Part shown: piece by piece, positions 5,660 to 64,000 of the stretch
Position numbering within the stretch: the stretch's first letter is position 1
Layout of the letters: every line of letters starts with the position of its first letter
Source: an uncultured Clostridia bacterium
GTDB taxonomy: Bacteria; Bacillota; Clostridia; TANB77; CAG-508
Reading direction: 5' to 3'
Assembly (NCBI GenBank): GCA_944393375.1
Contig: CALXZX010000002.1
Location: 15,487-79,486 of the forward strand
Length of the DNA: 64,000 nucleotides
Position numbers and translations under genes: made by a program
The notes under the pieces: model-generated
The model's database searches: none
Seen by the model: the letters and a program-made list of their open reading frames with translations, nothing else
What the model was told of the DNA's origin: nothing

Positions 5660-5661
5660 TA

Positions 5662-5753
5662 AAAAAGGGAAATTGGGGACAGACTCATTTTTCCCTTTTT
5701 TTACATCTCAATTTAAAAAGGGAAAAATGAGTCTGTCCCCAATTTCCCTTTTT
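5662..5753. terminator. Long perfect palindrome between convergent galE and crp/fnr genes (bidirectional terminator, REP-like element)
   Basis: The arm aaagggaaattggggacagactcatttttccc (within 5662-5695) is the exact reverse complement of gggaaaaatgagtctgtccccaatttcccttt (within 5720-5753). A/T runs lie on both outer sides. Confidence 0.75.
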
Positions 5754-6384
5754 ATTTATACAACAAAATAATTCGATTTCCAATTTTTTCAATAAAGCCA
5801 TCTTCTTTTAATAGTTTTAATTCTCTCATCATCGCACTTCTATCAACACTTAAATAATCTGCTAAATCAGTTAAAGAAAAAGGTAGCTCAAAAGAAGTAC
5901 TTAATTTCCTAGTAGAAAGTAAAGAAAAATAGCCAAGTAATTTATCTCTAGTAGATCTTTTGGTTAATAATTCAATTCTCATATTTAAATCTGTTACTTT
6001 ATTTAATATGAGTTGTGGTAAATTTTCAGATAAGGTTTGGTGAAATTTACAATTGTTTCTACATTTATGGAAAATATCATCATATATGTAGAAAAGAACT
6101 GTACAATTTGATTTTGCTTCAACTAATAATTCATTATTAGTTGTGATGGTATAAAATACCTCACCAAAAAGAGCATTTTTTGAAAAATGTTCTACAATTG
6201 TTCGATTACCATTTAAGTCATAACGTACCAAATCGGCATTTCCATCTAATAATATACATAATTGATTTCGGTTTTTAATATAAGTTGTAACAACTTCATT
6301 TTTGCTAAAGACTTTTTTTTGCTTTTTTTGACAAGAATTTGAAAAGTCAAGAATAAAGTTTTCTATGTCAAAGTTAGTGTTCAC
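5752..6384 (-). CDS. Crp/Fnr family transcriptional regulator
   Basis: GTG start 7 nt after AAGGAGG. cNMP-binding-like beta-roll N-terminal half and C-terminal HTH (LTDLADYLSVDRSAMMRELKLLKEDGFI). 210 aa. Confidence 0.85.
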   Translation of the reverse strand: MNTNFDIENFILDFSNSCQKKQKKVFSKNEVVTTYIKNRNQLCILLDGNADLVRYDLNGNRTIVEHFSKNALFGEVFYTITTNNELLVEAKSNCTVLFYIYDDIFHKCRNNCKFHQTLSENLPQLILNKVTDLNMRIELLTKRSTRDKLLGYFSLLSTRKLSTSFELPFSLTDLADYLSVDRSAMMRELKLLKEDGFIEKIGNRIILLYK

Positions 6385-11662: not shown

Positions 11663-11765
11663 TTGTCATGCTCCCATCTCTATAAAATTTATATTTGCAT
11701 TATAGCACAACAAAGAAAAAAGATAAAGTTTTCTGAATTTAAAACAATAAAAATGAAAAAATCCC

Positions 11766-11960
11766 TAGAGTTTCTTACTCTAAGAATAATTTATATAAAG
11801 ATAATATCAATAAAGTAGTTATATGTCAATAAAAATATTCTTTATTTGTACAACAAATTTTTATATAAAAATGAAAGTTTTTATAATTATAATCTAAAAC
11901 TATAAATCTATAAATGACAATAGTTAGAAAGATATTATCAATTTCTTAGAGTAAGAAACT
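11766..11960. promoter_or_regulatory. Putative invertible promoter (inverton 1) upstream of surface-protein paralog 1
   Basis: IR-L 11769-11786 (agtttcttactctaagaa) is the exact reverse complement of IR-R 11943-11960 (ttcttagagtaagaaact), 18 bp. The enclosed 156 bp carries TTGACA (11829-11824), 17 nt, TATTAT (11806-11801) on the minus strand, facing away from the gene at 12019. Confidence 0.7.
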
Positions 11961-12018
11961 AAAAGAAAATTAAAAATAGTTTCAAAACAAAAGAAAATGC
12001 AGAAAAGAGGGATAAAAA

Positions 12019-13494
12019 ATGAAAAAACACATACAAAAAAGTAAAATGAAAAATCAAAAAGGAATTACATTATTAGTATTAGTTATTACTATAATAATTT
12101 TATTAATCCTAGCAGGAATTACCATAAGTGCGTTAACAGGAGACAATGGAATTATAGAAAATGCAGGAAAGGCAAAAGAAGAAACAGAAATAGCCAATGA
12201 AAAAGAGATAGTAGAAAAGGCAACCGTACAAGCAATGGGGAATAATAAGTATGGAAATATAGAAGAAGATGAATTGCAAAGTGAGTTAGATAAAGAAACA
12301 GGAGAAGGGAAAACAGATGCAACAGATATAGGAAATGAACTTGAAGTAGTATTTATTGATAGTAATCGATATTATGTAGTTGATAAAGATGGAAATGTAG
12401 GAGAAGCACAAGAGATTATAAAAGATAAAAATCCAGGAGATATTACAATAGGAAAAGATGGAGAAACATTAGATGGAAGTGAAGAACATCCATATGAGAT
12501 AAGGTGTATAGAAGATTTAATAGAATGGTCACAACATTATACTAAATATCAGAATAGTAATATTGTCTTATGTAAAGACTTGAATTTTAAATCTTCACTA
12601 TCTTATGCAGATAGTAAAAGTATGGAATATGGAGACATCAATCAAGATAATACAACAGACAGTCTGATTGAGGAGATGCAAAAAGGAATAGGTTTCACAC
12701 CAATAGCAAATTTTTCAGGGATATTTAATGGGAATCATTTTGGAATTCAGAATATTTATATAGTTAATCATGAAAGTGTAGGACTATTTAGTCAAATAGA
12801 TGGAGCTATAATAAGTGATCTAGATATAAGTGGATATATTGAAAGTACAGAAATTACTAGCATTGCTGGTGGAGCTGGTAGCATAGCAGGAAATATAAGT
12901 GAAGGAAGAAATAAAAAAAGTTATATAGAAAATTGTTCAAATAGTGCTACTATAAAAGGTTTTTTAAACCAAAATTATACAGGAATTGGTGGTATAGTAG
13001 GTAAATCTAACGGGGCAGCTAATATAGTAAATTGTAGTAATAGAGGTACAATAATAAGTGAAGTAGGTACAAAAGTTTATATGGGAGAAAACGCAATAGG
13101 TACTGCGGGAATTTTAGGATATACAAGAGGTAATAAGGCTGATGTCAATATATATAACAGTTATAATATAGGAAATGTTTCATCAAATAAATCATCTTGT
13201 GGAATAATGGGAGGTATATGGGCAGAAGGTTCAATTAATATAGAAAATTGTTTTAATATAGGAGAAGCAAAAATAGGGATTTGTAAAAGTGCAAATAGTA
13301 GTAACAGTATTTACTATTTGGATAGTGCAAGTAGCACAGGAGGAATAACAAATGCAGTTCTTATTACAAAAAATGAATTGTGTAGTGAAGAATTTATTAA
13401 TTTATTAAATGATTATATAGAATCAGGAGAAGATTATAAAACTAAATGGAAAAAATGGAAATTAGGAGAAGAAGGATATCCTATAATTGAATAA
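12019..13494 (+). CDS. Surface protein paralog 1: pilin-like N-terminal hydrophobic module plus GLUG-type beta-helix repeats
   Basis: N-terminus KGITLLVLVITIIILLILAGITISALTGDNGII resembles a class III (prepilin) signal but lacks Glu+5. A conserved ~160-aa module ends at PYEIRCIEDL. The C-terminal half has repeated GG(I/L)(V/I)G...N(C/S)xN.G motifs. Confidence 0.85.
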   Translation: MKKHIQKSKMKNQKGITLLVLVITIIILLILAGITISALTGDNGIIENAGKAKEETEIANEKEIVEKATVQAMGNNKYGNIEEDELQSELDKETGEGKTDATDIGNELEVVFIDSNRYYVVDKDGNVGEAQEIIKDKNPGDITIGKDGETLDGSEEHPYEIRCIEDLIEWSQHYTKYQNSNIVLCKDLNFKSSLSYADSKSMEYGDINQDNTTDSLIEEMQKGIGFTPIANFSGIFNGNHFGIQNIYIVNHESVGLFSQIDGAIISDLDISGYIESTEITSIAGGAGSIAGNISEGRNKKSYIENCSNSATIKGFLNQNYTGIGGIVGKSNGAANIVNCSNRGTIISEVGTKVYMGENAIGTAGILGYTRGNKADVNIYNSYNIGNVSSNKSSCGIMGGIWAEGSINIENCFNIGEAKIGICKSANSSNSIYYLDSASSTGGITNAVLITKNELCSEEFINLLNDYIESGEDYKTKWKKWKLGEEGYPIIE

Positions 13495-39817: not shown

Positions 39818-41767
39818 ATGGGACAAAAGAAAAGTAAAAGTTTGTTAATAACAGTTATTGTTTTATTAATTATTATTTTAATTTTAGTAGGCGTTATAGC
39901 ATATTTATATTTTTTCACAGATATGTTTAAAAGTAATAAACAGTTATTTTTCAAATATACTTCACAGATTATGCAAAGTGAAGATGGATTTATAGATAAT
40001 CAGTTAATGCAATATTTTCAAAAAAAGGATAGCACAAGTTATGAAAATAATGGAGAAATAACATTTGATGTATCTATTCCCAATATGGAAGATGATTTAG
40101 AATTGGCTAATCATTTTAATATTACTTTTTCAGGAAAAGAAGATCCTAATAATTCAAAATTAGAAAAAGAGATTAGTCTCAACTATTCAGATAGTGTCAA
40201 TTTTCCATTAACATATAGAAAAACAAATAACATAACAGGAATTCAAACCCAATATATTGGAAGTAGTTTTGTAGCTATTAGAAATGATGAAGAAATTTCT
40301 GGATTAACAGATATAAATAATTTATTAAAATTACAAAATATAGCGTTTTCTAATGAAGAAATACAAAATCTGAAAACAACTTATTTTGATAATATATTAA
40401 ATACATTAGAAGATAGCAAGTTTTCTACATTAACTGAGGGGAATTTAACAGGATATAGATTAACATTAACAGGTGAAGAATTCAAAAATACATTGGTTCA
40501 AATCTTAAATGTATTAAAAACAGATGCTAATACAATGCATAAAATAAACGAGATCTTGCAAGGGATAGGAATCGATACACAATTAAATGAAGATTCTATA
40601 GATACGCTAATAGAAAGTATTAATGATTGGGAATTAAATGATAATATTGAAATGACTGTATATGCCACAGGAGGAAAACTATATAGAGTTGATATAGGAA
40701 CAGCTGGAAATACATTAACAATAAATAGAGAAGGAAACGGTCAAGAAGTAACATATACTATGTCTTTGAATGTGACAGAACAAAATGCAAGTGCAGTATT
40801 TACAGCTAAATATTCTGGATTAAATTCAGATAATGTAACTGAAACATATGAACTAACATTAGAAGGAAAGTATGGAGAAACTAATGTAGTAGAAAAATCA
40901 GATAATACACAAGATACATTAGATATTTCAAGTGAGAGAGAAACAATTGAGTCATTAATGACAACTGTTCAAGCAAATAAAATAGCAGCAGGAGAAGATA
41001 GTACCCAAATCAGTGATACAGATGTAGAAGAAGAATTATCATCAGGAGAAAATGAAATCTATACAGATATGCGTTTAGAAAGAGAAACAGATACAACATT
41101 TAGTATTACATTTGTTAGTACAGGAGACAAATTTGTCATAGATAACACAGGAAAAATTGTTGAAGAACCAGAAGAAACTTCAACAAATGAAACTACAACA
41201 AATGCATCAGAAAATACGACCAGCCATAATACATATAATATGACAAATAATGTACAATTTAAAAATGGAGTACAAATAGAAGATTTAACAGAAGAAAATG
41301 CAGTTATTTTAAATGATAAAGATAATGAATATGTTAGCAATTTGATGAATGCTATACAACAAAGAATGGTAGAAGTCAATCAAGTGCAAATGGAAGAATT
41401 AGGCGTATCAGAAGATCAAAATCCAATTCAATATCTAATACCAGCATTTTTATTAACAAACGGAACAAATGCAGAAATAGATGAACAGGCAGTAAATGCT
41501 TTTAATGCAAAATTTGAACTATATGAAAGTACAAATACAAAAGGAGCAACAGTGAAAGGGTTATTAACAACTATACAAAATAATAATGAGACAGAAGGAA
41601 ATAACAAAATAGAAGAAATCAATATGGATGGCGAAGAATATGAAGTAAATGAACAAAATATTACCTTATTAAAAAGTAGCATTAATGTAGATGACGCATA
41701 CAGGGTAGAATTCGAAAAAGATATTAACACAGGACTAATTTATAGGGCAGTTATTAATAAACGTTAG
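39818..41767 (+). CDS. Hypothetical membrane-anchored protein
   Basis: ATG at 39818 after GGAGG. One N-terminal TM (LLITVIVLLIIILILVGVIAYLYFF), then ~620 aa of N/E/T-rich sequence with no recognised domain. Confidence 0.6.
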   Translation: MGQKKSKSLLITVIVLLIIILILVGVIAYLYFFTDMFKSNKQLFFKYTSQIMQSEDGFIDNQLMQYFQKKDSTSYENNGEITFDVSIPNMEDDLELANHFNITFSGKEDPNNSKLEKEISLNYSDSVNFPLTYRKTNNITGIQTQYIGSSFVAIRNDEEISGLTDINNLLKLQNIAFSNEEIQNLKTTYFDNILNTLEDSKFSTLTEGNLTGYRLTLTGEEFKNTLVQILNVLKTDANTMHKINEILQGIGIDTQLNEDSIDTLIESINDWELNDNIEMTVYATGGKLYRVDIGTAGNTLTINREGNGQEVTYTMSLNVTEQNASAVFTAKYSGLNSDNVTETYELTLEGKYGETNVVEKSDNTQDTLDISSERETIESLMTTVQANKIAAGEDSTQISDTDVEEELSSGENEIYTDMRLERETDTTFSITFVSTGDKFVIDNTGKIVEEPEETSTNETTTNASENTTSHNTYNMTNNVQFKNGVQIEDLTEENAVILNDKDNEYVSNLMNAIQQRMVEVNQVQMEELGVSEDQNPIQYLIPAFLLTNGTNAEIDEQAVNAFNAKFELYESTNTKGATVKGLLTTIQNNNETEGNNKIEEINMDGEEYEVNEQNITLLKSSINVDDAYRVEFEKDINTGLIYRAVINKR

Positions 41768-41845
41768 GGACGTGCCAAATCGTTCAATTTTTGAACGATT
41801 TGACCTGTCCCCAATGTTCAAAAATTGAACGAAAGGGACAGACCT
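41764..41845. repeat. Composite REP-like palindromic element (GGGAC-type) at the 3' end of the 39818 gene
   Basis: gggacgtgcc-aaatcgttcaatttttgaacgattt-gacctgtcccc forms nested inverted repeats. It is followed by a second copy, gttcaaaaattgaac, and by gggacagacc. Confidence 0.55.
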
Positions 41846-41871
41846 TATAATAATTTAGAAAAAATAGAAGG

Positions 41872-41911
41872 GTAAGACTTACAATTAAAGCGTGAGTCTT
41901 ACTTTTTTTTT
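41872..41911 (+). terminator. Rho-independent terminator
   Basis: gtaagact / agtcttac stem followed by a 9-nt T-run. Confidence 0.75.
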
Positions 41912-42060
41912 GTATTTATAAAAGAAACATTCATGTAAGTAATCAAATAAAGGCATAACCTAAAAAATAGTAATAAATCAAGTATACCAGAATATATATA
42001 TTATTGGGGTATAAGTAAAACAAATAAAATCCTAAAATTATATGACAAAAGGAGTGAAAA

Positions 42061-47360: not shown

Positions 47361-47556
47361 TATTGGCCATTATTCTTATGTATTCGCCTAATTCTTCATC
47401 CGTTAATTCTAATTCTAAAATTAGGTTTTTCAGAACATCTCGTCTAGGTAAATCTTCTTCATTATCAATTCGTATATATTGTCTTAAGCTAATTCCTAGT
47501 ATTTCAGACATTTTTTCTTGTGTATATTTTTTTGCCTTTCTTTTTTCTTTTATCAT
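47350..47556 (-). CDS. XRE family helix-turn-helix transcriptional regulator (68 aa)
   Basis: The YTQEKMSEILGISLRQYIRIDN HTH is typical of Cro/C1-type regulators. Confidence 0.8.
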   Translation of the reverse strand: MIKEKRKAKKYTQEKMSEILGISLRQYIRIDNEEDLPRRDVLKNLILELELTDEELGEYIRIMANKIA

Positions 47557-47615
47557 AACATCACCCTAAACTAATGTTTAAAGTAATTATTACACAAAAG
47601 AAGTAATTGTTGTAT

Positions 47616-47630: not shown

Positions 47631-47679
47631 GCATAAAAATATATAAAATATTTTTTAATCATTTAAAGATAAAAAAGCC

Positions 47680-47874
47680 TTAGAGTTTTTTACTCTAAGA
47701 AAGATTAATATAAGTTAATCATAACAATAAAATAGTGAAATGTCAATAAAATTTAATTGAATAAAATAGTGAATGTTTTAAGGAGAAATAATAAAAATTC
47801 AAAAAATGAAATAGAAGAAAATAAAGTAATATTAATACTTATGGAATTTTCATAATTTCTTAGAGTAAAAAAAT
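47680..47874. promoter_or_regulatory. Putative invertible promoter (inverton 2) upstream of the BspA-LRR paralog
   Basis: IR-L 47686-47702 (ttttttactctaagaaa) is the exact reverse complement of IR-R 47856-47872 (tttcttagagtaaaaaa), 17 bp. The segment carries TTGACA (47746-47741), 17 nt, TATGAT (47723-47718) on the minus strand, facing away from the gene at 47899. Confidence 0.7.
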
Positions 47875-47898
47875 AATGGAAACCAAAGGAGAGAAATT

Positions 47899-50010
47899 AT
47901 GAAAACTAAAGAAAATAGAAAAAATAGGGGAATTACTTTAATTGCCCTAGTTATCACCATTATAGTGTTACTAATTTTAGCAGGAATCACAATAGGAGCG
48001 ATAACAGGAGATAATGGTATTATACAAAATGCATTAAGTGCAAAAGAACAAACAGAAATTGCAAATGAAAGAGAAATTGTAGAAGAAGCAACTGTTCAAG
48101 CCATGGGAAAGAATAAAAGAGGAAACATTGTAAAAGATGAATTGCAAGAAGAATTAGATAAAATAACAGGAGAAGGAAAAACCATTGTAACAGAAGATAA
48201 AGAAGAACTAGGATATTTTGTAAAGTTTGTAGACAGTGGAAGAATCTATAAAGTTAGTATAGATGGAGATGTACAATATTTAGGAAAAGAAAATGAATTA
48301 ATCACACAAGCAGATATTATAGCAAATCCAGAAAGTAATACAACAGCAGAGCTAATACAACAAGTAGATTTAACAGTAAAAACACCAATTGAAATAGAAG
48401 GAGCAGAGTATTCATTAGTATATGCATGGAACCAAGATAAAGAAAATGCACCAGAAGATACAAAATTCTTAGAAACAAACTTAATAGGAGAAGGAAGAAT
48501 CAGAACGACAACGGTATATAGTAGTGATACAGTAGGAGGAGACTATTACTTGTGGGTAAGAATTGTGGTAGGAGATATAGAAAGAGAAGCATGTTTTGGA
48601 CCATATGCAATAAAAGATTATACAACTTTAGTATCTGTTGATTGGAATGGTGGTTTAGCAGAAGGAGGATTTTTAGGAAATAGTGAAGTACCAAGAGGAA
48701 AAATACAAAATATTGATATAATTACATCATTAGAGGGACATAGTGTAGATGATGAAAAAACCTGGGATGTATCAGATGGAAATAAAGGAATGTATTTAGC
48801 ATGGTATGAAGTAAATGAGAATGGATATTATGATGTAACGATTGCAGGAAATGGAGGAATTGTTGCAAATAGTTATTCAACATATTTATTTAAAAATATA
48901 GGTTCTGGTGTGGAAAATCAAGAAGTAACAATAACAGGGTTAGAATATTTAGACACAGGGTTAGTAACGAATATGTATTCAATGTTTGAAAATTGTAAAG
49001 CAGAAGAAATAGATGTGAGCCAATTTAATACAGAAAAAGTTACATCCATGTCATCAATGTTTTCAAGTTGTAGTAATATAGAAAGTTTGAATGTAAGTAA
49101 TTTTAAAACAGAGAATGTAACAAGTATGTATCAGATGTTTGATGGATGTAGTAGTTTAACAGAATTAGATTTAACGAATTTTAATACAAGTAATGTAACG
49201 AATATGGAAGGTATGTTTTTGAACTGTAAAGCAACAAGTATATACTTAAGTGGTTTTGATACAAAAAATGTAGCAAATATGCTAAATATGTTTAATGGTT
49301 GTTCTGTAACAAGCCTGGATGTAAGCCATTTTAACACAAGTAATGTAACAAATATGCAGGGAATGTTTGCTAATTGTAAAGTACAGAGTTTAGATTTAAC
49401 GAGTTTTAATACAAGTAAAGTAACAACTATGTGGACTATGTTTCAAGGGTGTCAAGCAACTAATATTGATGTGAGTAGTTTTGACACGAGTAGTGTATTA
49501 TATATGAGAGAAATGTTTGCATCGTGTAGAGCAACAGATTTAGATTTATCTAATTTTGATACAAGCAATGTAACAAATATGTATAGAATGTTTATGAGTT
49601 GTAGAGCAACAAATATAGATGTAAGCAATTTTGACATAAGTAACGTAACATATACTATGGATGGAATGTTCCGAGATTGTTCAAATTTAGTAAAATTAGA
49701 TGCAAGTAGTTTTACAATGCCCAAAACAACATCTGTAGAGTGGATGTTTGGAGGTTGTCAAAAAATAGAACAAATAGACCTTAAAAATTTTGAGGTAAAG
49801 GAAGGAACCAATATTAATCAGATGTTTTACAACTGCCGAAGTTTAGAAAAATTAGATATTAGAAAATTTGATATAACAAAGACAACTGGATATAGTAATT
49901 ACTGGATATATCCTGTACCAACAACATGTAGTATTATTGTAAATCAAAGCATGAAAGATTGGTTTACAGAAAACCTTCCAAATTATACAAATGTAACAAT
50001 AGGAAATTAG
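47899..50010 (+). CDS. Surface protein paralog 2: pilin-like N-terminal module plus BspA/DUF285-type leucine-rich repeats
   Basis: N-terminus RGITLIALVITIIVLLILAGITIGAITGDNGII is homologous to the other five paralogs. The C-terminal half has about 12 tandem ~24-aa repeats (F(N/D)TSNVTNMxxMFxxCxxxxLDLSN). Confidence 0.88.
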   Translation: MKTKENRKNRGITLIALVITIIVLLILAGITIGAITGDNGIIQNALSAKEQTEIANEREIVEEATVQAMGKNKRGNIVKDELQEELDKITGEGKTIVTEDKEELGYFVKFVDSGRIYKVSIDGDVQYLGKENELITQADIIANPESNTTAELIQQVDLTVKTPIEIEGAEYSLVYAWNQDKENAPEDTKFLETNLIGEGRIRTTTVYSSDTVGGDYYLWVRIVVGDIEREACFGPYAIKDYTTLVSVDWNGGLAEGGFLGNSEVPRGKIQNIDIITSLEGHSVDDEKTWDVSDGNKGMYLAWYEVNENGYYDVTIAGNGGIVANSYSTYLFKNIGSGVENQEVTITGLEYLDTGLVTNMYSMFENCKAEEIDVSQFNTEKVTSMSSMFSSCSNIESLNVSNFKTENVTSMYQMFDGCSSLTELDLTNFNTSNVTNMEGMFLNCKATSIYLSGFDTKNVANMLNMFNGCSVTSLDVSHFNTSNVTNMQGMFANCKVQSLDLTSFNTSKVTTMWTMFQGCQATNIDVSSFDTSSVLYMREMFASCRATDLDLSNFDTSNVTNMYRMFMSCRATNIDVSNFDISNVTYTMDGMFRDCSNLVKLDASSFTMPKTTSVEWMFGGCQKIEQIDLKNFEVKEGTNINQMFYNCRSLEKLDIRKFDITKTTGYSNYWIYPVPTTCSIIVNQSMKDWFTENLPNYTNVTIGN

Positions 50011-54888: not shown

Positions 54889-55019
54889 TCTATATATGAA
54901 TGCTATTTGAGAATTTAATAATTTTGATGATTCTAATAGAAAAATTACTTTATATCGAAAAGGTATAGAGTAATTTTTGCTTTTATGATAAAATAAGAAA
55001 AAACTTAGGAGAAAAAGAA

Positions 55020-55439
55020 ATGGTATTATTAAAAATATTAGCAGGATTAATTATTTATATATTGATTTGTGTAATAATTGGATTGATCAAATTTAAAGAA
55101 AAGCCAAAAAAATATATCATGTCAACATTGTCTATGATATTTAATGGCTTTATGGGATTTATGGATACCATATTTTTTATATTATTTTATATGTTTTTTT
55201 CAAATCAACCTAAAGGAAGTGCATATTATGTACCAGAAAGTGAAGAAAGTTTAAATGCAATGATAGGAATGTTTCTTTTAATTGTATATTTGTTAATATT
55301 ACTACCGATTAATATATATATGAAACGAAAAGGAAAAATTAGCACAAAAGTATATATAATAATGAGTGTATTGGCAACATTAGTGGGATTAGGAATTTAT
55401 TGGATTTGGATAGGAACACAATTTACCAAAATATTTTAA
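55020..55439 (+). CDS. Hypothetical small membrane protein
   Basis: Four hydrophobic segments and an AGGAG RBS. No family recognised. Confidence 0.55.
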   Translation: MVLLKILAGLIIYILICVIIGLIKFKEKPKKYIMSTLSMIFNGFMGFMDTIFFILFYMFFSNQPKGSAYYVPESEESLNAMIGMFLLIVYLLILLPINIYMKRKGKISTKVYIIMSVLATLVGLGIYWIWIGTQFTKIF

Positions 55440-55460
55440 TAAAAAACAACTAAAAAAAGT

Positions 55461-55654
55461 CCTAGAGTTAAGTACTCTAGAACTTTTTTAATACCTTGAT
55501 TATACCAATAAATATAATAGATATCAACAAAAAATAGAAAATAAAATGACAAAATTTATTAATTGGAAAATAGAAAATAAAAAAGAACAAAGACAGTAAA
55601 AAGGCTAAATAATGCATAAAATCCAACTTTCTATATTTCTTAGAGTACTTAACT
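55461..55654. promoter_or_regulatory. Putative invertible promoter (inverton 3)
   Basis: IR-L core 55466-55479 (agttaagtactcta) is the exact reverse complement of IR-R 55641-55654 (tagagtacttaact), 14 bp. The flanking GAA/TTC extends it with a 1-nt bulge. The segment carries TTGATA (55527-55522), 17 nt, TATAAT (55504-55499) on the minus strand. Confidence 0.65.
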
Positions 55655-55683
55655 AAAAGAAAGTATAGAAGGGAGAAGATAAA

Positions 55684-57219
55684 ATGCAAAAGATAAGGAA
55701 AGAACAGGGAATTACATTATTAGCATTAGTAATTACTATTATTATATTATTAATCTTAGCAGGAATCACAATAAGTGCTATTACAGGGGACAATGGAATC
55801 ATAGGAAATGCAGGACAAGCAAAAGAGGAAACAGAGATTGCCAATGAAAAAGAAATTATAGAAAAAGCGACTGTACAAGCAATGGGAAATAATAAATATG
55901 GGAACATAGAAGAAAGTGAATTACAAGAACAATTAGATAAAGAAACAGGAGAAGAAAAAACAGAAGTATTAAATGTCGAAGATGAATTTGAAGTTGTATT
56001 TCATGAAAGTAACAGATATTATACAGTAGATAAAGATGGAAATGTACAAGGTGCCTATGAAATCATAGAAGATAAATATCCGGGAGATATTACTGTTGGA
56101 AAAGATGGAGAAACATTATATGGAAGTGAAGAAAAACCATATGAAATCTGGTGTATAGAAGATTTAATGGAATGGTCTAAAAACTATAGTCAATATATGA
56201 ACGCATATATAAAGTTATGTACTAATTTAAACTTTAAATCAGAATTATCATATGCAAATAGTGAAACAAAAGACTATGGAGATGTGAATCAAGATGGAAA
56301 TACAGATAGTTTAATAAAAGAATTACAAAGTAGAGAAGGATTTAAAGCAATACAACAATTTTCAGGTAATTTTGATGGTGATGAAAATATAATCAGTAAT
56401 TTATATATTTCTAAACAGGACAATGCAGGTCTCATCTTATCTTTAAATAATGCTAATTTCAAGAATATTACAATAAAAGGAGAAATATATAGCCAAAGTA
56501 ATAATGCCGGAATTATTTCTCAAGGAGGAAATAGTCAAATTGAAAATATTATAAGTGATGTTAAGATATATGGTGGCGTAGCAGCAGGAATAATAGGAAG
56601 ATGTACAGCTCAATTAAACATAAAGGATTGCGTGAACTTGGGAAATATAGAATCAACGTCAGCAGTAGGTGGAGTTTGTGGAGACCAGTTTACAGGAGAA
56701 ATGTTAAATTGTATAAATGAAGGAACAATAAAATCTAGCGCAAGTGGAAATTATGGTGTAGGAGGATTATGTGGAAATACTGGCAGTAATAATACAGAAA
56801 GTACACAAATAAAAAATTGTATAAATAGTGGAACAATTATATATGATGGAAATAAAAGTGTATGGTATTTTGGTGGAGCAGGTGGAATAACAGGATTAAA
56901 TCGACAAACATTGATTATACAAAACTGTGTGAATACAGGAAAAATACAATCTACCTCTTATGTAGGTGCTATATGTGGAATGGATCTTATATATTGGCAA
57001 AGCCAAGAAACATATGAATTAACCAATTCATTCATGTTAGATAATGTGGAGAGAGTAACAGGAAGTAATAATGCAGAAACAGAAATTACAGTATTTAAAA
57101 TCGAAGATGTTCTAGATGTAGCTACAAGTTTAAATCAATATATAAATAATAATAAATTAACAGAACAAGGTTGGAAATTATGGAAAATAGAAAATGATAA
57201 TAAATTAACATTAGAATAA
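55684..57219 (+). CDS. Surface protein paralog 3: pilin-like N-terminal module plus GLUG-type beta-helix repeats
   Basis: GGGAGAAG RBS. MQKIRKEQGITLLALVITIIILLILAGITISAITGDNGIIGNAG start. Constant module runs to PYEIWCIEDL (55684-56166). C-terminal GG(V/L)CG/AGGITG repeats. Confidence 0.88.
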   Translation: MQKIRKEQGITLLALVITIIILLILAGITISAITGDNGIIGNAGQAKEETEIANEKEIIEKATVQAMGNNKYGNIEESELQEQLDKETGEEKTEVLNVEDEFEVVFHESNRYYTVDKDGNVQGAYEIIEDKYPGDITVGKDGETLYGSEEKPYEIWCIEDLMEWSKNYSQYMNAYIKLCTNLNFKSELSYANSETKDYGDVNQDGNTDSLIKELQSREGFKAIQQFSGNFDGDENIISNLYISKQDNAGLILSLNNANFKNITIKGEIYSQSNNAGIISQGGNSQIENIISDVKIYGGVAAGIIGRCTAQLNIKDCVNLGNIESTSAVGGVCGDQFTGEMLNCINEGTIKSSASGNYGVGGLCGNTGSNNTESTQIKNCINSGTIIYDGNKSVWYFGGAGGITGLNRQTLIIQNCVNTGKIQSTSYVGAICGMDLIYWQSQETYELTNSFMLDNVERVTGSNNAETEITVFKIEDVLDVATSLNQYINNNKLTEQGWKLWKIENDNKLTLE

Positions 57220-57242
57220 AATATATAAAAAATAAAAATAAA

Positions 57243-57445
57243 TTCATTGAGTTAGATACTCAATGAATTTTTTACTAAAAAGATTATACCATAATTGTAA
57301 AGAAAATCAAGCATTTAAAAAGATATTTAATATAATAATTAGTAATTAAAAAAGTAATAAAATAAAATGAAAAGGTAGTTAAAAATGCACATATTTTCAT
57401 AAAAAAAGTCCTTTTTAATTTTCATTAAGTATCTAACTTAATGAA
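57243..57445. promoter_or_regulatory. Putative invertible promoter (inverton 4)
   Basis: The reverse complement of IR-L 57243-57267 (ttcattgagttagatactcaatgaa) matches IR-R 57421-57445 (ttcattaagtatctaacttaatgaa) at 23/25 positions. The loop sequences ttagata and tatctaa are mutual reverse complements. The segment carries TTGATT (57310-57305), 16 nt, TATAAT (57288-57283) on the minus strand. Confidence 0.7.
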
Positions 57446-57464
57446 AAAGAAAGGGGCAAGAAAA

Positions 57465-59066
57465 ATGCAAAAGATAAGGAAAGAACAGGGAATTACACTA
57501 TTAGCATTAGTTATAACCATCATTGTGTTATTAATCTTAGCAGGAATCACAATAAGTGCGATAACAGGAGATAATGGAATCATAGGAAATGCAGGTCAAG
57601 CAAAAGAAGAAACAGAGATTGCCAATGAAAAAGAAATTGTAGAGAAAGCAACTGTACAAGCAATGGGAAATAATAAATATGGGAACATAGAAGAAAGTGA
57701 ATTACAAGAACAGCTAAATAAGGAAACAGAGGAAGGAAAAACAGAAGTATCAGATGTCGAAGATGAATTTGAAGTTGTATTTCATGAAAGTAATAGATAT
57801 TATACAGTAGATAAAGATGGAAATGTACAAGGTGCCTATGAAATCATAGAAGACAAATATCCAGGAGATATCACAGTTGGAAAAGATGGAAATACATTAG
57901 ATGGAAGTGAAGAAAAACCGTATGAGATTTGGTGTATAGAAGATTTATGTGCATTTTCAAACGAAGTAAATAAAGGAACAACATTTTGGAGCAAATATGT
58001 AAAATTAATGAGAAATTTAAATTTTAATTCAAATCTTTCTTATGTAAACGGAAACATATCTGTAGATGGGAATATTCAAAGTTGTCAATCAATCGAGGAA
58101 TTAAAGAAGTTATTAACAGAAAATGAAGGATTTTATCCTATTGGAAATTCATATTCATCAACAGCTGCAATTTTTAGGGGAATTTTTGATGGAAATAATA
58201 AGACTATAAAAAAAATATATATTAATAGACCCAATAATGTGGTAGGATTATTCGGAACAACATCCAATGATACCGATAATAATATTATTATTAAAAATTT
58301 ATCTATTTCTGGAAATATGACCGGAAGTACTGTTGGTAGTATATTTGCTGATGTTAGAACTTATGATAGGGATAATAAAGATTCTTTTATAAAAATTGAA
58401 AATTGCACAAGTGACATAAATATAGAAGGAGATGTGACAGGGGGATTTATTGGAATTAATAATGCTTCTTCTACAGGAAAATTGATTATTGCCAATTGTA
58501 TAAATAATGGAACAATAAATGGCAAAAGTTATGTTGGTGGCATTTTAGGATATAATTATAATAATACTAAAATAATTAACTGTTATAATTCAGGAAACAT
58601 AGAAGGAGAGTCGGATGTAGGAGGAATTGTTGGACATGATGAAAGGCAATCTAATATAATAAATACATATAATTTAGGAAATGTGACATCTAATTCGAAT
58701 GCTGGAGGAATAATAGGCTGGTCAGGATGGGCAGAAAAAAGTATAGAAAATTGTTATAATATGGGAAGAATATCAGGAAGTACTGTAGGTGGAATTATTG
58801 GAGGATTAAATATAAGTAATGAATTGCTAACTACTCAAAATTGTTATTATTTAAATAAAAATATTTCAAAAGGAACTGGAAGTTGGAATGGTGGAGGAGA
58901 ATCTCAAGAAGATATTAATGGTATTTCTGATACTGAAATGAAATCAACTGAAATATTAGAAAAACTCAATAATTATGTAACAGAAAATATAACAATAGAA
59001 GGTGTTGTGTTGAAAAAATGGATAGTAGGAGAGGATGGATATCCAATTTTTGAAAAAAATATATAA
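57465..59066 (+). CDS. Surface protein paralog 4: pilin-like N-terminal module plus GLUG-type beta-helix repeats
   Basis: The ATG at 57465 (after AAAGGGG) aligns with the MQKIRKEQGITLLAL start of paralogs 3 and 6. The track start at 57441 lies inside IR-R. The C-terminal ~110 aa are shared with paralog 5. Confidence 0.88.
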   Translation: MQKIRKEQGITLLALVITIIVLLILAGITISAITGDNGIIGNAGQAKEETEIANEKEIVEKATVQAMGNNKYGNIEESELQEQLNKETEEGKTEVSDVEDEFEVVFHESNRYYTVDKDGNVQGAYEIIEDKYPGDITVGKDGNTLDGSEEKPYEIWCIEDLCAFSNEVNKGTTFWSKYVKLMRNLNFNSNLSYVNGNISVDGNIQSCQSIEELKKLLTENEGFYPIGNSYSSTAAIFRGIFDGNNKTIKKIYINRPNNVVGLFGTTSNDTDNNIIIKNLSISGNMTGSTVGSIFADVRTYDRDNKDSFIKIENCTSDINIEGDVTGGFIGINNASSTGKLIIANCINNGTINGKSYVGGILGYNYNNTKIINCYNSGNIEGESDVGGIVGHDERQSNIINTYNLGNVTSNSNAGGIIGWSGWAEKSIENCYNMGRISGSTVGGIIGGLNISNELLTTQNCYYLNKNISKGTGSWNGGGESQEDINGISDTEMKSTEILEKLNNYVTENITIEGVVLKKWIVGEDGYPIFEKNI

Positions 59067-59074
59067 AAAAATAT

Positions 59075-59276
59075 CGTTAAGTTAATTACTTAACGATTGA
59101 AAACTAAATATATAATACCAATAAAAAATAGTAAAGTCAATAGATAAGGAGAGATATACAAGAAAAGAAAAATAGAATAGAAAACAACAAAAAATGAAAA
59201 GCAGAAATGATTTGTTTTATAGTAAAATCAAATCATTCCTGCTTTTTTATATATACCTTAAGTAATTAACTAAAAG
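59075..59276. promoter_or_regulatory. Putative invertible promoter (inverton 5)
   Basis: The reverse complement of IR-L 59075-59095 (cgttaagttaattacttaacg) matches IR-R 59256-59276 (ccttaagtaattaactaaaag) at 18/21, with a perfect 14-bp core. The segment carries TTGACT (59140-59135), 17 nt, TATTAT (59117-59112) on the minus strand. An internal plus-strand terminator lies at 59201-59248. Confidence 0.7.
59201..59248 (+). terminator. Intrinsic terminator inside inverton 5, just upstream of IR-R
   Basis: gcagaaatgattt / aaatcattcctgc, a 13-bp stem with one mismatch, followed by TTTTTT. Confidence 0.65.
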
Positions 59277-59331
59277 AAAATGAAAAAATGATGAAATACA
59301 TGAGAAAATAAAAAGAAAAGAGGTATAACGT

Positions 59332-60987
59332 ATGAGATTCAAAAGAGAAAACAAACGAGAAGCAGGAATTACATTATTAGCATTAGTTATAACCATCATT
59401 GTATTATTAATATTAGCAGGAATTATAATAAGTGCTATTACAGGGGACAATGGAATCATAGGAAATGCAGGTCAAGCAAAAGAAGAAACAGAGATTGCAA
59501 ATGAAAAAGAAATTGTAGAGAAAGCAACTGTACAAGCAATGGGAAATAATAAATATGGGAACATAGAAGAAAGTGAATTACAAGAACAATTAGATAAAGA
59601 AACGGATACTGGAAAAACAGAAGTATCAGATGTGGAAGATGAATTTGAAGTTGTATTTCATGAAAGTAACAGATATTACACAGTAGATAAAGATGGAAAT
59701 GTAGATGGTGCCTATGAAATTATAGAAGATAAACATCCAGGAGATATTACGCTTGGAAAAGATGGAGAAACATTAGATGGAAGTGAAGAAAAACCATATG
59801 AGATTTGGTGTATAGAAGACTTAGTAGCTTTTTCGAATATGGTAAATGGAGAAGGGATTAGGTTAGAAAATGGCGAGCCCAAACAAATAAGAAGTACAAA
59901 TAGTTTTTCTTTAAAATATGTTGTTTTAAAAACAAATCTTAATTTTAAATCAAAATTATCATATCAAAATAGTGAAAGAACGGACTTTGGAGATATTAAT
60001 GGAAATGAAAATGATGGAAATACATTGATGAATGAAATGACAACAGAAAATGGATTTAAACCAATAGGAATGGTTGAAAATACAGGCTTCGGTGGTGTTT
60101 TTGATGGTCAAAATTATTGGATAAAAGAAATGTATATCCATAGAGAAGATAGAGGAGTAGGTCTATTTACTAAAATAGACAATGTAAATAGTGTAGTTAT
60201 AAAAAATTTGAGAATATCAGGAGAAATGGCAGGAAACTCTGGCGGAGGTGTAGTAGGGACGGTATCTTTGGTTTTTAGAGGGAACAATATAATGATACAA
60301 AATTGTATAAATTATGTAAATATTAAAACTACGGTTTCGGCAGGAGGAATTGTTGGCAGTCGTGGATCTGGTGGATCAGATAAGACTTTAATGATTGCTG
60401 ATTGTATAAACTATGGAGAAATTGAAGGACAAAATTTCTCGGGTGGAATTATTGGACTAGCATATGAAACTACAAAAATTATTAATTGCTGTAATATAGG
60501 AAAAATAGTAAGTAAAGATAAAAATGAAGCATATGGAGGAGCGGGTGGAATTATTGGAACTAGTATGTTTAAAGTTAATATTATTAATGCATATAATTTT
60601 GGAAATGTAGAAGCTGAAAAAAATGCAGGAGGTATTTTAGGATATTCTTATTGGGCAGAAAAGAGTATAGAAAATTGTTATAATATAGGGAAAATATCAG
60701 GAGATACTGTAGGTGGAATTATAGGAACATTGACACTAAGTAATGAATTGTTAGCAACACAAAACTGTTACTATTTAAACACAAATATTTCAAAAGGATT
60801 TGGTAGTTGGAATTCTAGTGCAGAAGCATTAGAAGATGTACAAGGTCTTACAGATACAGAAATGAAATCAACGGAAGTATTAGAGAAACTCAATAATTAT
60901 GTAACAGAGAATATAACAATGGAAGGTATTGTATTGAAAAAATGGATAGTAGGAGAGGATGGATATCCTGGATTTGATAATAACTAA
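59332..60987 (+). CDS. Surface protein paralog 5: pilin-like N-terminal module plus GLUG-type beta-helix repeats
   Basis: AGAGG RBS. MRFKRENKREAGITLLALVITIIVLLILAGIIISAITGDNGII start. Constant module to PYEIWCIEDL (ends 59823). GG(I/V)(I/V)G...NC(Y/I)N.G repeats. Confidence 0.88.
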   Translation: MRFKRENKREAGITLLALVITIIVLLILAGIIISAITGDNGIIGNAGQAKEETEIANEKEIVEKATVQAMGNNKYGNIEESELQEQLDKETDTGKTEVSDVEDEFEVVFHESNRYYTVDKDGNVDGAYEIIEDKHPGDITLGKDGETLDGSEEKPYEIWCIEDLVAFSNMVNGEGIRLENGEPKQIRSTNSFSLKYVVLKTNLNFKSKLSYQNSERTDFGDINGNENDGNTLMNEMTTENGFKPIGMVENTGFGGVFDGQNYWIKEMYIHREDRGVGLFTKIDNVNSVVIKNLRISGEMAGNSGGGVVGTVSLVFRGNNIMIQNCINYVNIKTTVSAGGIVGSRGSGGSDKTLMIADCINYGEIEGQNFSGGIIGLAYETTKIINCCNIGKIVSKDKNEAYGGAGGIIGTSMFKVNIINAYNFGNVEAEKNAGGILGYSYWAEKSIENCYNIGKISGDTVGGIIGTLTLSNELLATQNCYYLNTNISKGFGSWNSSAEALEDVQGLTDTEMKSTEVLEKLNNYVTENITMEGIVLKKWIVGEDGYPGFDNN

Positions 60988-61054
60988 TCATAAAGTTAAA
61001 ATTTAAATTACTCAATAGAAAATATATTTGTTAAATTAATGAATTAAATATTGC

Positions 61055-61106
61055 AAAATCTCTAATTGTGTTGTAAAATAATGGAAATGCAATTAGAGAT
61101 TTTTTT
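61055..61106 (+). terminator. Rho-independent terminator after paralog 5
   Basis: 14-bp stem aaaatctctaattg / caattagagatttt followed by a T-run. Confidence 0.7.
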
Positions 61107-61440
61107 GTTTTATTCATAAAGTTTTATTGTTAATTAAAAAAGAGTTTTGTTTAATGAGATTTATATCAAAAAATTAAAAAAATAAATAATCTAACGATTC
61201 AAGTATTTTTAAAATGTTAAAAAGTATTAATAAAATTATTTTTCAAAAATTATTTTGTGATTTAAATAGAGTTTAATTCTGAAGTTTTAAATTTGTATTT
61301 GTTGATTTTTTATATCTGAATTTATATCTGAAACATTCCAGTTTTTATATATTTATTTTTCATGTAAAAAATAAATGGTAATTGTTGTGAGTACAAAATA
61401 TCTCTAATGTATTTATAGATAAAGAAAAGTCAACTTTTTG

Positions 61441-61469
61441 TTGAATATGCAATAAAAATTTGATAGAAT
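61441..61469 (+). promoter_or_regulatory. Sigma-A-type promoter of the Rpn-like gene
   Basis: TTGAAT (61441-61446), 17 nt, TAGAAT (61464-61469). AAAGGAG RBS before the ATG at 61485. Confidence 0.55.
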
Positions 61470-61484
61470 GAAAGGAGAAGATAA

Positions 61485-62369
61485 ATGAGTAATTTAAACA
61501 AATTAAAAGAAGTAGATATGCTACCATTATCAAATGATTATGTATTCAAAAGAATATTTGGAAAAGGTGGAAATGAAAGAATATTAAAAAGCTTACTAGA
61601 AGCAATTTTAAAAATTAGTATACAAAAAATAGAAGTAAAAAATCCGGAAATACCAAAAGAAGCAATTGATGAAAAATTAAGCATCTTAGATATCAAAGCA
61701 GAAATAAATGAAAATACCATTATAGATGTTGAATTACAAGTAGGAAATACAACGGCCTTAGAAAGAAGATTAGTAGTATATAATGCAAAACTAATAGCAG
61801 GAGAAATAAAAGTATCAGAAAAATATCAAAAGGCAAAAGATACAATTGTGATATGTATTATAAATGATAATGTTGTAAGACGAAATGCATATTTAAGTTT
61901 AGCCATGTTAAAATATGAAAAAACAGAAGAAATCAGATATGTCAATATGGGATATGGAAAAGAAGAAGAATATTTAACAGACATGGTAAAATACTATATC
62001 ATAGAATTACCAAAGTTTAAGAAAAAGAAACCAAAGGTAGCAGATTTACTAGAAAAATGGTTATATGTGATTGGGGGAGATAGAAAAATGATGGAAGAAT
62101 GCAAAAAAGAAAATGAAGAAATCAAAGAAGCAGTAGAACAATTAACACAAATGAGTGCAGATGAATACGAAAGAGAACTATATGAAATTAGGGAAAGAAG
62201 TAGATTAACTTATAACACAGAAATGTATGAAGCAAGAAGGAAAGGATTAGAAGAAGGGAAGACTGAAGAAAGAAAAGAAATTGCTAAGAAAATGAAAGAA
62301 AAAGGTACAGATATTACATATATAATCGAGATAACAGGTTTAACTGAAGAAGAAATTAAAGCATTGTAA
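61485..62369 (+). CDS. Rpn / PD-(D/E)XK (PDDEXK_2, TIGR01784 'putative transposase or invertase') family nuclease
   Basis: N-terminal L..SNDYVFKRIFG motif. D...E.Q nuclease core (LSILDIKAEINENTIIDVELQ). Charged helical C-terminus ending in an HTH-like KGTDITYIIEITGLTEEEIKAL, as is typical of this family. Confidence 0.75.
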   Translation: MSNLNKLKEVDMLPLSNDYVFKRIFGKGGNERILKSLLEAILKISIQKIEVKNPEIPKEAIDEKLSILDIKAEINENTIIDVELQVGNTTALERRLVVYNAKLIAGEIKVSEKYQKAKDTIVICIINDNVVRRNAYLSLAMLKYEKTEEIRYVNMGYGKEEEYLTDMVKYYIIELPKFKKKKPKVADLLEKWLYVIGGDRKMMEECKKENEEIKEAVEQLTQMSADEYERELYEIRERSRLTYNTEMYEARRKGLEEGKTEERKEIAKKMKEKGTDITYIIEITGLTEEEIKAL

Positions 62370-62418
62370 TTTATTTATAAGTATCATTAAAGAAATAATT
62401 TTTCAGAACATAAAAAAT

Positions 62419-62618
62419 CGTTAAGTCAGATACTTAACGATATAAAACTAAAAATATAATATCAATAAAAAATAGTAAAGTCAATAGATAGAAAGAATGA
62501 AAATAAAGAATTAAAATTCATAAAGAAAATAAAAAACAAAAAGTAGAAAAAACTTGTAATAGTGTTACAATAAGTAATTTCTGCTTTTTTCTTTTTACCT
62601 TAAGTATCTGACTTAATG
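62419..62618. promoter_or_regulatory. Putative invertible promoter (inverton 6)
   Basis: The reverse complement of IR-L 62419-62439 (cgttaagtcagatacttaacg) matches IR-R 62598-62618 (ccttaagtatctgacttaatg) at 19/21, with a perfect 17-bp core. The segment carries TTGACT (62484-62479), 17 nt, TATTAT (62461-62456) on the minus strand. An internal terminator-like hairpin plus T-run lies at 62542-62590. Confidence 0.7.
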
Positions 62619-62640
62619 AAAAAGGAAAGGAGTAGGAAAA

Positions 62641-64000
62641 ATGCAAAAGATAAGGAAAGAACAAGGAATTACACTATTAGCATTAGTTATAACCATCATT
62701 GTATTATTAATATTAGCAGGAATTACAATAAGTGCGATAACAGGAGATAATGGAATCATAGGAAATGCAGGTAAAGCAAAAGAAGAAACAGAGATTGCAA
62801 ATGAAAAAGAAATTGTAGAGAAAGCAACTGTACAAGTAATGGGAAATAATAAATATGGGAACATAGAAGAAAGTGAATTACAAGAACAATTAGATAAAGA
62901 AACGGATACTGGAAAAACAGAAGTATCAGATGTCGGAGATGAATTTGAAGTTGTATTTCATGAAAGTAATCGATACTATACAGTAGATAAAGATGGAAAT
63001 GTAGAAGGTGCTTATGAAATTGTAGAAGATGAATATCCAGGAGATATTACAGTTGGAAAAGATGGAGAGACATTAGATGGAAGCGAAGGAAAACCATATG
63101 AGATTTGGTGTATAGAAGATTTAGTAGAATGGTCACAAAATTATAGAAACTATCAAAATTCTTATATAGAATTGAAAAGAACATTAAATTTTAAATCAAG
63201 ATTGTCTTATATAAACGGAAAAATGTTAAATTGCAATTCAATAGAAGAATTAAGAAATTTATTAACAAATACTTCTGGAAGTGGATTTACACCAATTACT
63301 AATTTTTATGGTACTTTTGATGGGAAGAACTTTGAAATACAAAATATTTATGAAAATGTATCAGGAAAAGCAGGTTTTTTTGCAGATGCTGCTGGGACAA
63401 TAAAAAATTTAAAAATATCGGGAAATATTATTTCAAATGATGGATATGCGGGTGGAATTGTAAGTAATTTAGGAGAAACATTAAACATTAGTAACTGCAT
63501 TAATTACTGTAACGTTACTGCAAATGCAGAAATACATACCAATCCTGGTAATGTTGATGTTCGTGGAACTGCAGGAGGAATTGTAGGAAAATGTGTAGGA
63601 AATGTTATCATTAAGGATTGTGCAAATGAAGGAAATATATATGGAACAAATGAAACGGGAGGAATAGTAGGATTTCAATATGTTTCTAATATCACAATTT
63701 TAAATTGTTATAATGATGGAATGATAAATGGGGAAAGTGATACAGGAGGAATCATTGGTAGAACATTGGCATCAACTGTGCAAATATATAATTGTTATAA
63801 CATAGGAAATATTTCTGGAAGTGTTACTGGAGGATTAATGGGAAATAGAGGTTCTAATGATAAAATAGAGATAAAAAATTGTTATAATTATTCAGAAATT
63901 AAAGGAAGTAAATATCAAGGAGAAATTATTGGATTTAATTGGGCATATGATACAGAAACATCTCCTACAATAGAAAATGTATTTTATACAAATCAAACAA
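62641..64000 (+). CDS. Surface protein paralog 6 (partial, runs off the window end): pilin-like N-terminal module plus GLUG-type beta-helix repeats
   Basis: ATG at 62641 after AAAGGAG. MQKIRKEQGITLLALVITIIVLLILAGITISAITGDNGII start. The frame stays open to base 64000. It is absent from the ORF track only because no stop falls within the window. Confidence 0.85.
   Translation, partial: MQKIRKEQGITLLALVITIIVLLILAGITISAITGDNGIIGNAGKAKEETEIANEKEIVEKATVQVMGNNKYGNIEESELQEQLDKETDTGKTEVSDVGDEFEVVFHESNRYYTVDKDGNVEGAYEIVEDEYPGDITVGKDGETLDGSEGKPYEIWCIEDLVEWSQNYRNYQNSYIELKRTLNFKSRLSYINGKMLNCNSIEELRNLLTNTSGSGFTPITNFYGTFDGKNFEIQNIYENVSGKAGFFADAAGTIKNLKISGNIISNDGYAGGIVSNLGETLNISNCINYCNVTANAEIHTNPGNVDVRGTAGGIVGKCVGNVIIKDCANEGNIYGTNETGGIVGFQYVSNITILNCYNDGMINGESDTGGIIGRTLASTVQIYNCYNIGNISGSVTGGLMGNRGSNDKIEIKNCYNYSEIKGSKYQGEIIGFNWAYDTETSPTIENVFYTNQT

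Follow-up and report, generated by a model that had tools for sequence, protein, structure and literature searches.

The window (the whole 64,000-nt stretch of DNA analysed here) is ordinary chromosome of a spore-forming Clostridia bacterium with 28% G+C. It carries six invertible promoter switches (invertons), all assembled in the OFF orientation, and six phase-variable genes (Table 1). The encoded proteins share a pilin-like N-terminal segment, K/QGITLLALVITIIxLLILAG; the first ∼ 150 residues are ∼ 90% identical in four of them and the C-terminal parts differ (GLUG-like or DUF285/PARCEL repeats). Most of these proteins have no Pfam or NCBIfam family. The inverton at 47678 controls a 703-aa DUF285/PARCEL-repeat protein, and a divergent gene for a 66-aa protein of the XRE helix-turn-helix type lies just upstream of it.

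Inverton 5 occupies the gap 59075–59331, which separates paralog 4 (stop codon at 59066) from paralog 5 (start codon at 59332). The parts of the inverton follow one another as left inverted repeat (IR-L), minus-strand promoter, A-rich spacer, hairpin with six T residues (T6) and right inverted repeat (IR-R), after which come the ribosome-binding site and the ATG. IR-L begins 7 nt past the paralog 4 stop codon and is a perfect palindrome with a 10-bp stem. On the plus strand TGAAAACT comes next, so that the IR-L hairpin lacks a U-tract there, in agreement with the original prediction; on the minus strand the hairpin runs into ATTTTTTT, and the two together are predicted to stop the minus-strand transcripts of the OFF-oriented promoter. 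The promoter, a consensus match, points away from paralog 5 in this assembly, which is the OFF state. IR-R has a degenerate outer half-site and only a weak hairpin with no T-run, so that the promoter can read through it when ON. At both inverton 5 and inverton 6 we find flanking inverted repeats upstream of a gene, an internal promoter motif and, on public contigs, both orientations.

Table 1. Invertons, phase-variable genes and features of invertons 5 and 6, in positions of the window.
Feature	Position	Strand	Details
Inverton 1	11763-11966		OFF; core TTCTT
Phase-variable gene	12019-13494		pilin-like N-terminal segment
XRE-type helix-turn-helix gene	47362-47559	-	66 aa
Inverton 2	47678-47880		OFF; core TTTTT
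Phase-variable gene	47899-50010		pilin-like N-terminal segment
Inverton 3	55460-55660		OFF; core TAAGT
Phase-variable gene	55684-57219		pilin-like N-terminal segment
Inverton 4	57244-57444		OFF; core TAGAT
Paralog 4 (phase-variable)	57465-59066	+	ORF and Pfam Glug match; pilin-like N-terminus, GLUG-motif surface-protein region
Inverton 5	59074-59277		OFF; core TAATT
IR-L, inverton 5	59073-59097 (site-pair scan: 59074-59096)		recombination site; TCGTTAAGT, core TAATT, ACTTAACGA
Promoter, inverton 5	59112-59140	-	TTGACT, 17 nt, TG-n-TATTAT
Hairpin element, inverton 5	59197-59248	+	A-tract, hairpin G59201 to C59242, T6 at 59243-59248
IR-R, inverton 5	59255-59277		ACCTTAAGT, core AATTA, ACTAAAAGA
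Paralog 5 (phase-variable)	59332-60987	+	controlled by inverton 5; pilin-like N-terminal segment
Rpn-family gene	61485-62369		between paralogs 5 and 6
Inverton 6	62418-62619		OFF; core CAGAT
IR-L, inverton 6	62418-62440		TCGTTAAGT, core CAGAT, ACTTAACGA; T-run on minus strand only
Promoter, inverton 6	62456-62484	-	TTGACT, 17 nt, TG-n-TATTAT; OFF in this assembly
Hairpin, inverton 6	about 62538-62589, element to 62596	+	interior loops; then T6CT5
IR-R, inverton 6	62597-62619		ACCTTAAGT, core ATCTG, ACTTAATGA
Paralog 6 (phase-variable)	62641-64000	+	runs past the window end; pilin-like N-terminal segment

Using the conserved N-terminal domain of the paralogs as query, we retrieved 70 loci from uncultured gut Clostridia MAGs, and a site-pair scan identified 54 invertons of the same build, six of them from the window and the other 48 from the MAG loci. 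The proteins of this family continue from the pilin-like segment into GLUG, DUF285 or PARCEL-repeat regions. The promoter (TTGACT, 17 nt, TG-n-TATTAT) stands in a fixed place next to one repeat and matches the consensus in 54/54 invertons. IR-L is a near-perfect palindrome across the family, with a T-run on its outer minus-strand side, and IR-R has a degenerate outer half-site with no T-run; the mean hairpin energies are −9.6 kcal/mol (IR-L) and −4.6 kcal/mol (IR-R), and IR-L is the more stable in 49/54. In 48/54 invertons IR-L is a predicted minus-strand terminator directly downstream (about 15 nt) of the OFF-facing promoter. A metagenome-wide scan with the promoter pattern of the subfamily, run on a collection that holds little of this lineage, returned eight matches, one of them a family member (L080, OFF); the other seven were discarded as unrelated AT-rich sequences, most of them promoter-like.

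The recombination sites consist of two half-sites around an asymmetric 5-bp core, an arrangement that suggests a tyrosine recombinase. The cores differ among all six invertons of the window, and loci from one MAG mostly differ in core or half-site; distinct cores would keep different switches from recombining. A Pfam search of 40 of the window's 57 ORFs with a length of 150 aa or more, together with motif scans that covered the window and every locus, gave no recombinase in the window or the locus flanks, and the invertase gene may lie elsewhere in the genome.

The segments of invertons 5 and 6 invert in nature. Among public contigs that encode an unchanged paralog 5 protein, L071, L072, L073 and L075 (the last retrieved via the paralog 4 protein) have inverton 5 OFF, base for base as in the window, and L074 has it ON. 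L074 is a partial contig that starts inside the inverton, 137 nt before the gene; its promoter points into paralog 5, and its right-hand site, ATCGTTAAGT, AATTA, ACTAAAAG, is exactly what a crossover at the 5-bp core predicts. The complete ON form of inverton 6 was found in L087, where the upstream Rpn-family protein is identical. Its IR-L reads TCGTTAAGT, CAGAT, ACTTAAGGT, the right half having become ACTTAAGGT-type on inversion, and its IR-R reads TCGTTAAGT, ATCTG, ACTTAATGA; the reverse-complemented hairpin follows directly after IR-L (AAAAAAGCAGAAATTGC...CTAC, then TTTTTGTTTTTT) and the promoter stands at the right end. Two of the 48 related invertons of species-representative MAGs were likewise assembled ON (L004 and L022). 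A number of contigs start or end in or beside an inverton (L074, L003, L004, L005, L011, L016, L035, L041 and L049), an effect that would be expected of mixed orientations in the sequenced population.

The original prediction placed a plus-strand terminator, a hairpin with a 13-bp stem plus TTTTTT at 59201–59248, inside segment 5 just before IR-R. The hairpin is there. Its stem has 14 positions, with 13 Watson–Crick pairs, one A.C mismatch and five G–C pairs; an AU-rich extension lies above and AAAA/UUUU pairs lie below. T6 adjoins the stem directly on its 3′ side, and the hairpin ends about 10 nt before IR-R. A repeat search gave arms at 59197–59218 and 59225–59246 with 91% complementarity. 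As RNA, the plus strand of 59190–59255 folds with −20.5 kcal/mol versus −5.9 ± 2.2 kcal/mol for shuffles (z −6.7; 0/200 shuffles as good), and the minus-strand form of the hairpin reaches −23.4 kcal/mol (z −9.7) and is followed by UUUUCAUUUUUU. A simple terminator scan of the window did not list the hairpin, probably because a T.T mismatch near the loop leaves an unbroken loop-side stem too short for the rule of a 3–8 nt loop; we do not read this miss as evidence against the hairpin. The AU-richness of the stem was counted against reading it as a terminator. A stable stem-loop with G–C pairs, an adjoining 3′ U-tract and a structure that is kept over sequence (see below) are features of intrinsic terminators, and intrinsic termination is predicted at this hairpin. 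Nothing terminator-like lies between the paralog 4 stop codon and the hairpin, which is thus the first place where paralog 4 transcripts could end; these are the transcripts that it would stop.

Inverton 6 has an equivalent element, and the left parts of segments 5 and 6 are homologous, both as foreseen; they are nearly identical, and the shared stretch corresponds to the minus-strand promoter. The hairpin of inverton 6 is weaker than that of inverton 5 (−14.9 kcal/mol, z −3.9; 68.7 bits with the covariance model described below), and its reverse form is no better than shuffles (z −1.5). The copy in L087 is weaker still (z about −2.5 to −2.8); compared with 62538–62596 of the window, its upper-stem differences are not compensatory; lower stem, A-tract and T-tract are all preserved. 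The gene upstream of inverton 6 is co-directional and encodes an Rpn-family PD-(D/E)XK ‘recombination-promoting nuclease/putative transposase’; several assemblies have the gene in the corresponding place, coding for an unchanged protein. We considered and rejected it as the invertase, as it is not a known invertase type.

Among the 54 invertons examined (window and gut MAGs), the hairpin and its T-run occupy about positions 97–150 of the ∼ 156-nt segment in 13 OFF copies (inverton 5, inverton 6, L002, L012, L013, L015, L021, L031, L033, L037, L045, L046 and L055), and in the ON copy L004 the hairpin lies at the mirrored position, 10–55. Covariation was assessed on 16 homologous hairpin regions, aligned with MAFFT (not fitted to structure), over the 14-pair stem. 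Paired cells make up 81.5%, compared with 38–46% (maximum 45.5%) when the partner column is slid by 1–3 positions. Changes on both sides are found in 8/14 pairs (25 cells), and 0/500 shuffles reach the observed covariation score. The stem sequence varies and the flanking A and T columns are almost invariant in the 16 homologues; the position of the hairpin is conserved across at least seven sequence clusters, with compensatory changes.

From this alignment we built a covariance model, which located further family copies in L016, L017, L080 and L087. The model also matches terminator-like hairpins at ordinary gene ends of the window, one at 5652–5754, between convergent genes ending at 5659 and 5752, the other at 41848–41917, following a gene that ends at 41767. 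Thus, the hairpin element looks like the ordinary two-way terminators of this organism. At two gene ends (5660–5755 and 41760–41845) a GGGGACAGAC / GTCTGTCCCC motif sits within long palindromes; it has three matches versus 0.6 expected and may be a small repeated palindromic element. In the Rfam scan of 55000–64000 no family reaches threshold, and the only hit, of the hairpin with the model of a microRNA precursor (24.9 bits versus a threshold of 90), was set aside as chance. We also rejected a 5′ UTR regulatory RNA, since the hairpin lies upstream of the promoter when ON and the promoter faces away from it when OFF, and a mobile-element insertion, since the segment length (about 155 nt) is the same whether or not the hairpin is present.

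The plus-strand terminators of OFF invertons are unevenly distributed. In class A (n = 23) the IR-L hairpin is followed by a T-run, class B (n = 14) has the internal hairpin with its T-run and class C (n = 17) has no plus-strand terminator. The internal hairpin is present only where IR-L has no plus-strand T-run, the two kinds being found together in 0/54 invertons. The upstream gene, counted where an ORF of at least 100 aa allowed a judgement, is co-directional versus divergent in 17/5 invertons of class A, 11/2 of class B and 3/10 of class C. Co-directional upstream genes accompany 28/35 invertons with any plus-strand terminator versus 3/13 without. The Fisher p values (9e-5 for the mutual exclusion, 5e-4 per inverton for the association with gene direction, and 0.017 for the latter after collapsing invertons > 85% identical into 34 clusters) are indicative only, as related loci are not independent. 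On these sequence data, the distribution and the co-directional neighbours support a role in insulation. L013 and L055 carry the internal hairpin yet follow a divergent gene, so that their plus-strand terminator has no obvious use; here the element may have been inherited with the cassette and not kept by local need.

Every segment was then inverted in silico, following the recombination geometry verified by L074 and L087. The IR-L junction terminator of class A, which includes window invertons 3 and 4 (55460–55490 and 57244–57275) and 21 related loci, is lost in nearly all cases, because the T-run after IR-L is part of the segment and leaves the junction when the segment flips. Class A is predicted to be an OFF-only junction terminator, the principle that has been proposed for cwpV (see below). 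In class B, 12/14 copies keep a predicted plus-strand terminator, 26–84 nt after the IR-L start. Since an A-tract and a T-tract flank it on opposite sides, the inverted element again presents a hairpin and T-run on the plus strand; in inverted inverton 5, the more stable of its two forms comes to lie just after IR-L. A terminator that turns over with its segment, while the transcripts to be stopped keep arriving from the same side, needs to be symmetric; that of invertons 5 and 6 is. As the plus strand of the whole segment is rich in A, composition and not selection may account for part of the reverse-side T-run. In the other inverton type, minus-strand hairpins are weak (−6 to −11 kcal/mol) and within the range of shuffled sequences.

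These results divide the original prediction, which held that the hairpin ends plus-strand transcription in the OFF orientation, keeping read-through from paralog 4 out of paralog 5, and becomes inert after inversion. Insulation of the OFF gene from paralog 4 is supported by the inversion, the covariation and the distribution, with termination itself being a prediction; that it should be specific to the OFF state is not supported. Likewise, the claim that the inverted element is harmless agrees with its position, since it lies upstream of the promoter when ON (as in the L087 copy) and is harmless to its own promoter there, but it is still a predicted plus-strand terminator. An element that insulates in the OFF state only is, in our view, an unlikely reading. 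The OFF-orientation form does score higher with the hairpin model for most copies (80.9 versus 51.7 bits for inverton 5) and folds better in L012, L031, L033, L045 and L046, and the reverse form of inverton 6 does not exceed its shuffles. However, in inverton 5 the reverse form is the stronger of the two, most copies keep the predicted terminator after inversion, and the internal-hairpin invertons do not use the OFF-only design that their sister type has.

The anatomy of the element, its inversion, its covarying conservation, its position in both states and its non-random distribution lead us to propose that the hairpin and T-run are probably a bidirectional intrinsic (Rho-independent) terminator, which in either state insulates the switch and brings the upstream mRNA to an end. 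Termination by RNA polymerase at the hairpin, its efficiency and the activity of the promoter we infer from these features. Plus-strand transcripts coming from the co-directional neighbour upstream, which is paralog 4 at inverton 5 and the Rpn-family gene at inverton 6, would meet no other terminator. In the OFF state, read-through would end at the hairpin, about 10 nt before IR-R, and the promoter of the neighbour would not drive the silent gene. When the switch is ON, the flipped element just after IR-L would again present a hairpin and U-run, upstream transcripts would still end there and the gene would be driven by its own promoter only. The OFF-oriented promoter would fire leftwards into IR-L, whose minus-strand hairpin and T-run would cap those transcripts. 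With incoming transcripts and those of the OFF promoter both stopped, each switch would be self-insulated and tandem paralogs could be ON or OFF independently.

Accessory-protein sites occur inside invertible switches, for example in E. coli fimS, and the hairpin could in principle be such a site: a DNA palindrome (bound by the invertase or an architectural protein, or extruded as a cruciform) that sets the frequency or direction of inversion and does not act as an RNA terminator. That the hairpin lies within the invertible DNA and keeps a constant spacing to IR-R would fit, and the Pfam and motif scans found no invertase whose binding needs could speak against such a site. We nevertheless consider this very improbable. 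A protein site would conserve specific bases, whereas the stem sequences vary freely with pairing kept, and the conserved parts are the flanking A- and T-tracts; moreover, sister invertons with related sites and the same promoter do without the hairpin, and one of them (L022) was found ON. A chance AT-rich palindrome or functionless leftover is the least credible reading of all: at the G+C content of this genome weak hairpins with T-runs are common, and the copy in inverton 6 is degenerate and differs from strain to strain, but the folding z-scores of both forms of the inverton 5 hairpin (−6.7 and −9.7), the positional conservation with compensatory changes and the non-random distribution relative to IR-L type and upstream gene direction all stand against it.

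If the bidirectional terminator is extended to the whole lineage, its invertons might tentatively be regarded as fully self-insulated cassettes, with an IR-L terminator for the OFF promoter, a block to incoming transcripts that is either an OFF-only junction or a two-way internal element (the subfamily of invertons 5 and 6), and individual cores for independent flipping. We offer this as a speculation with less than even chances. If true, the mRNA of an upstream paralog would end inside its neighbour's switch, and the state of switch n would alter the 3′ UTR of gene n−1 by roughly 90 nt, possibly with an effect on stability.

Among the closest precedents is cwpV of Clostridioides difficile, where DNA inverts upstream of a surface-protein gene and an intrinsic terminator associated with the left repeat (stem-loop and poly-U) prevents transcription when the switch is OFF (Emerson et al. 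2009, PMC2784873). The systems are alike in the inversion upstream of a Clostridia surface-protein gene and in the use of an intrinsic terminator; the sister invertons at 55460 and 57244 resemble cwpV in that the segment gives the IR-L hairpin its T-run only when OFF. In cwpV, however, the DNA that inverts does not include the promoter, and switching is done by the terminator itself, whereas the promoter of invertons 5 and 6 lies inside, and their terminator is predicted to act on a neighbour's transcripts, from the interior of the segment and not from a junction, in both orientations. The fimS/fimE system, as far as it is described in PMC2784873, which cites a 2005 study, has a Rho-dependent, orientation-specific terminator for fimE in the invertible element. 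On that description, both are invertible promoter elements that also carry a terminator for the transcript of the upstream gene; the fim terminator regulates a recombinase, whereas that of invertons 5 and 6 would be intrinsic and orientation-independent and the upstream gene is a paralog or unrelated. The Mycoplasma penetrans mpl (P35) family (Horino et al. 2003, as summarised in PMC2268961) consists of numerous paralogous genes for surface proteins, some of them in tandem, and each is considered to be switched independently by an invertible promoter next to it. From this summary, the overall logic of the array is similar (six invertons in the window, 54 with the MAG loci) and the organism, the proteins and the recombination sites are different. 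Ordinary bidirectional intrinsic terminators have the same anatomy of A-tract, hairpin and T-tract but do not lie in invertible DNA; in invertons 5 and 6 the two-way symmetry lets the element face a transcript of fixed direction in either state. In a full-text literature search we did not find a bidirectional terminator described within an invertible element, and terminators figure in a recent inverton survey solely as a subject for future work.

For tandem phase-variable genes, independent switching needs an OFF gene that receives no leak from an ON neighbour, and this family shows two natural solutions to the insulation problem side by side. The two-way terminator offers compact natural parts for recombinase-based genetic circuits. 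It also gives testable design rules by which inverton states are read from metagenomes, where the orientation of the promoter alone may not predict expression unless insulation is considered. The invertons belong to a large, apparently undescribed family of phase-variable surface proteins in uncultured gut Clostridia.
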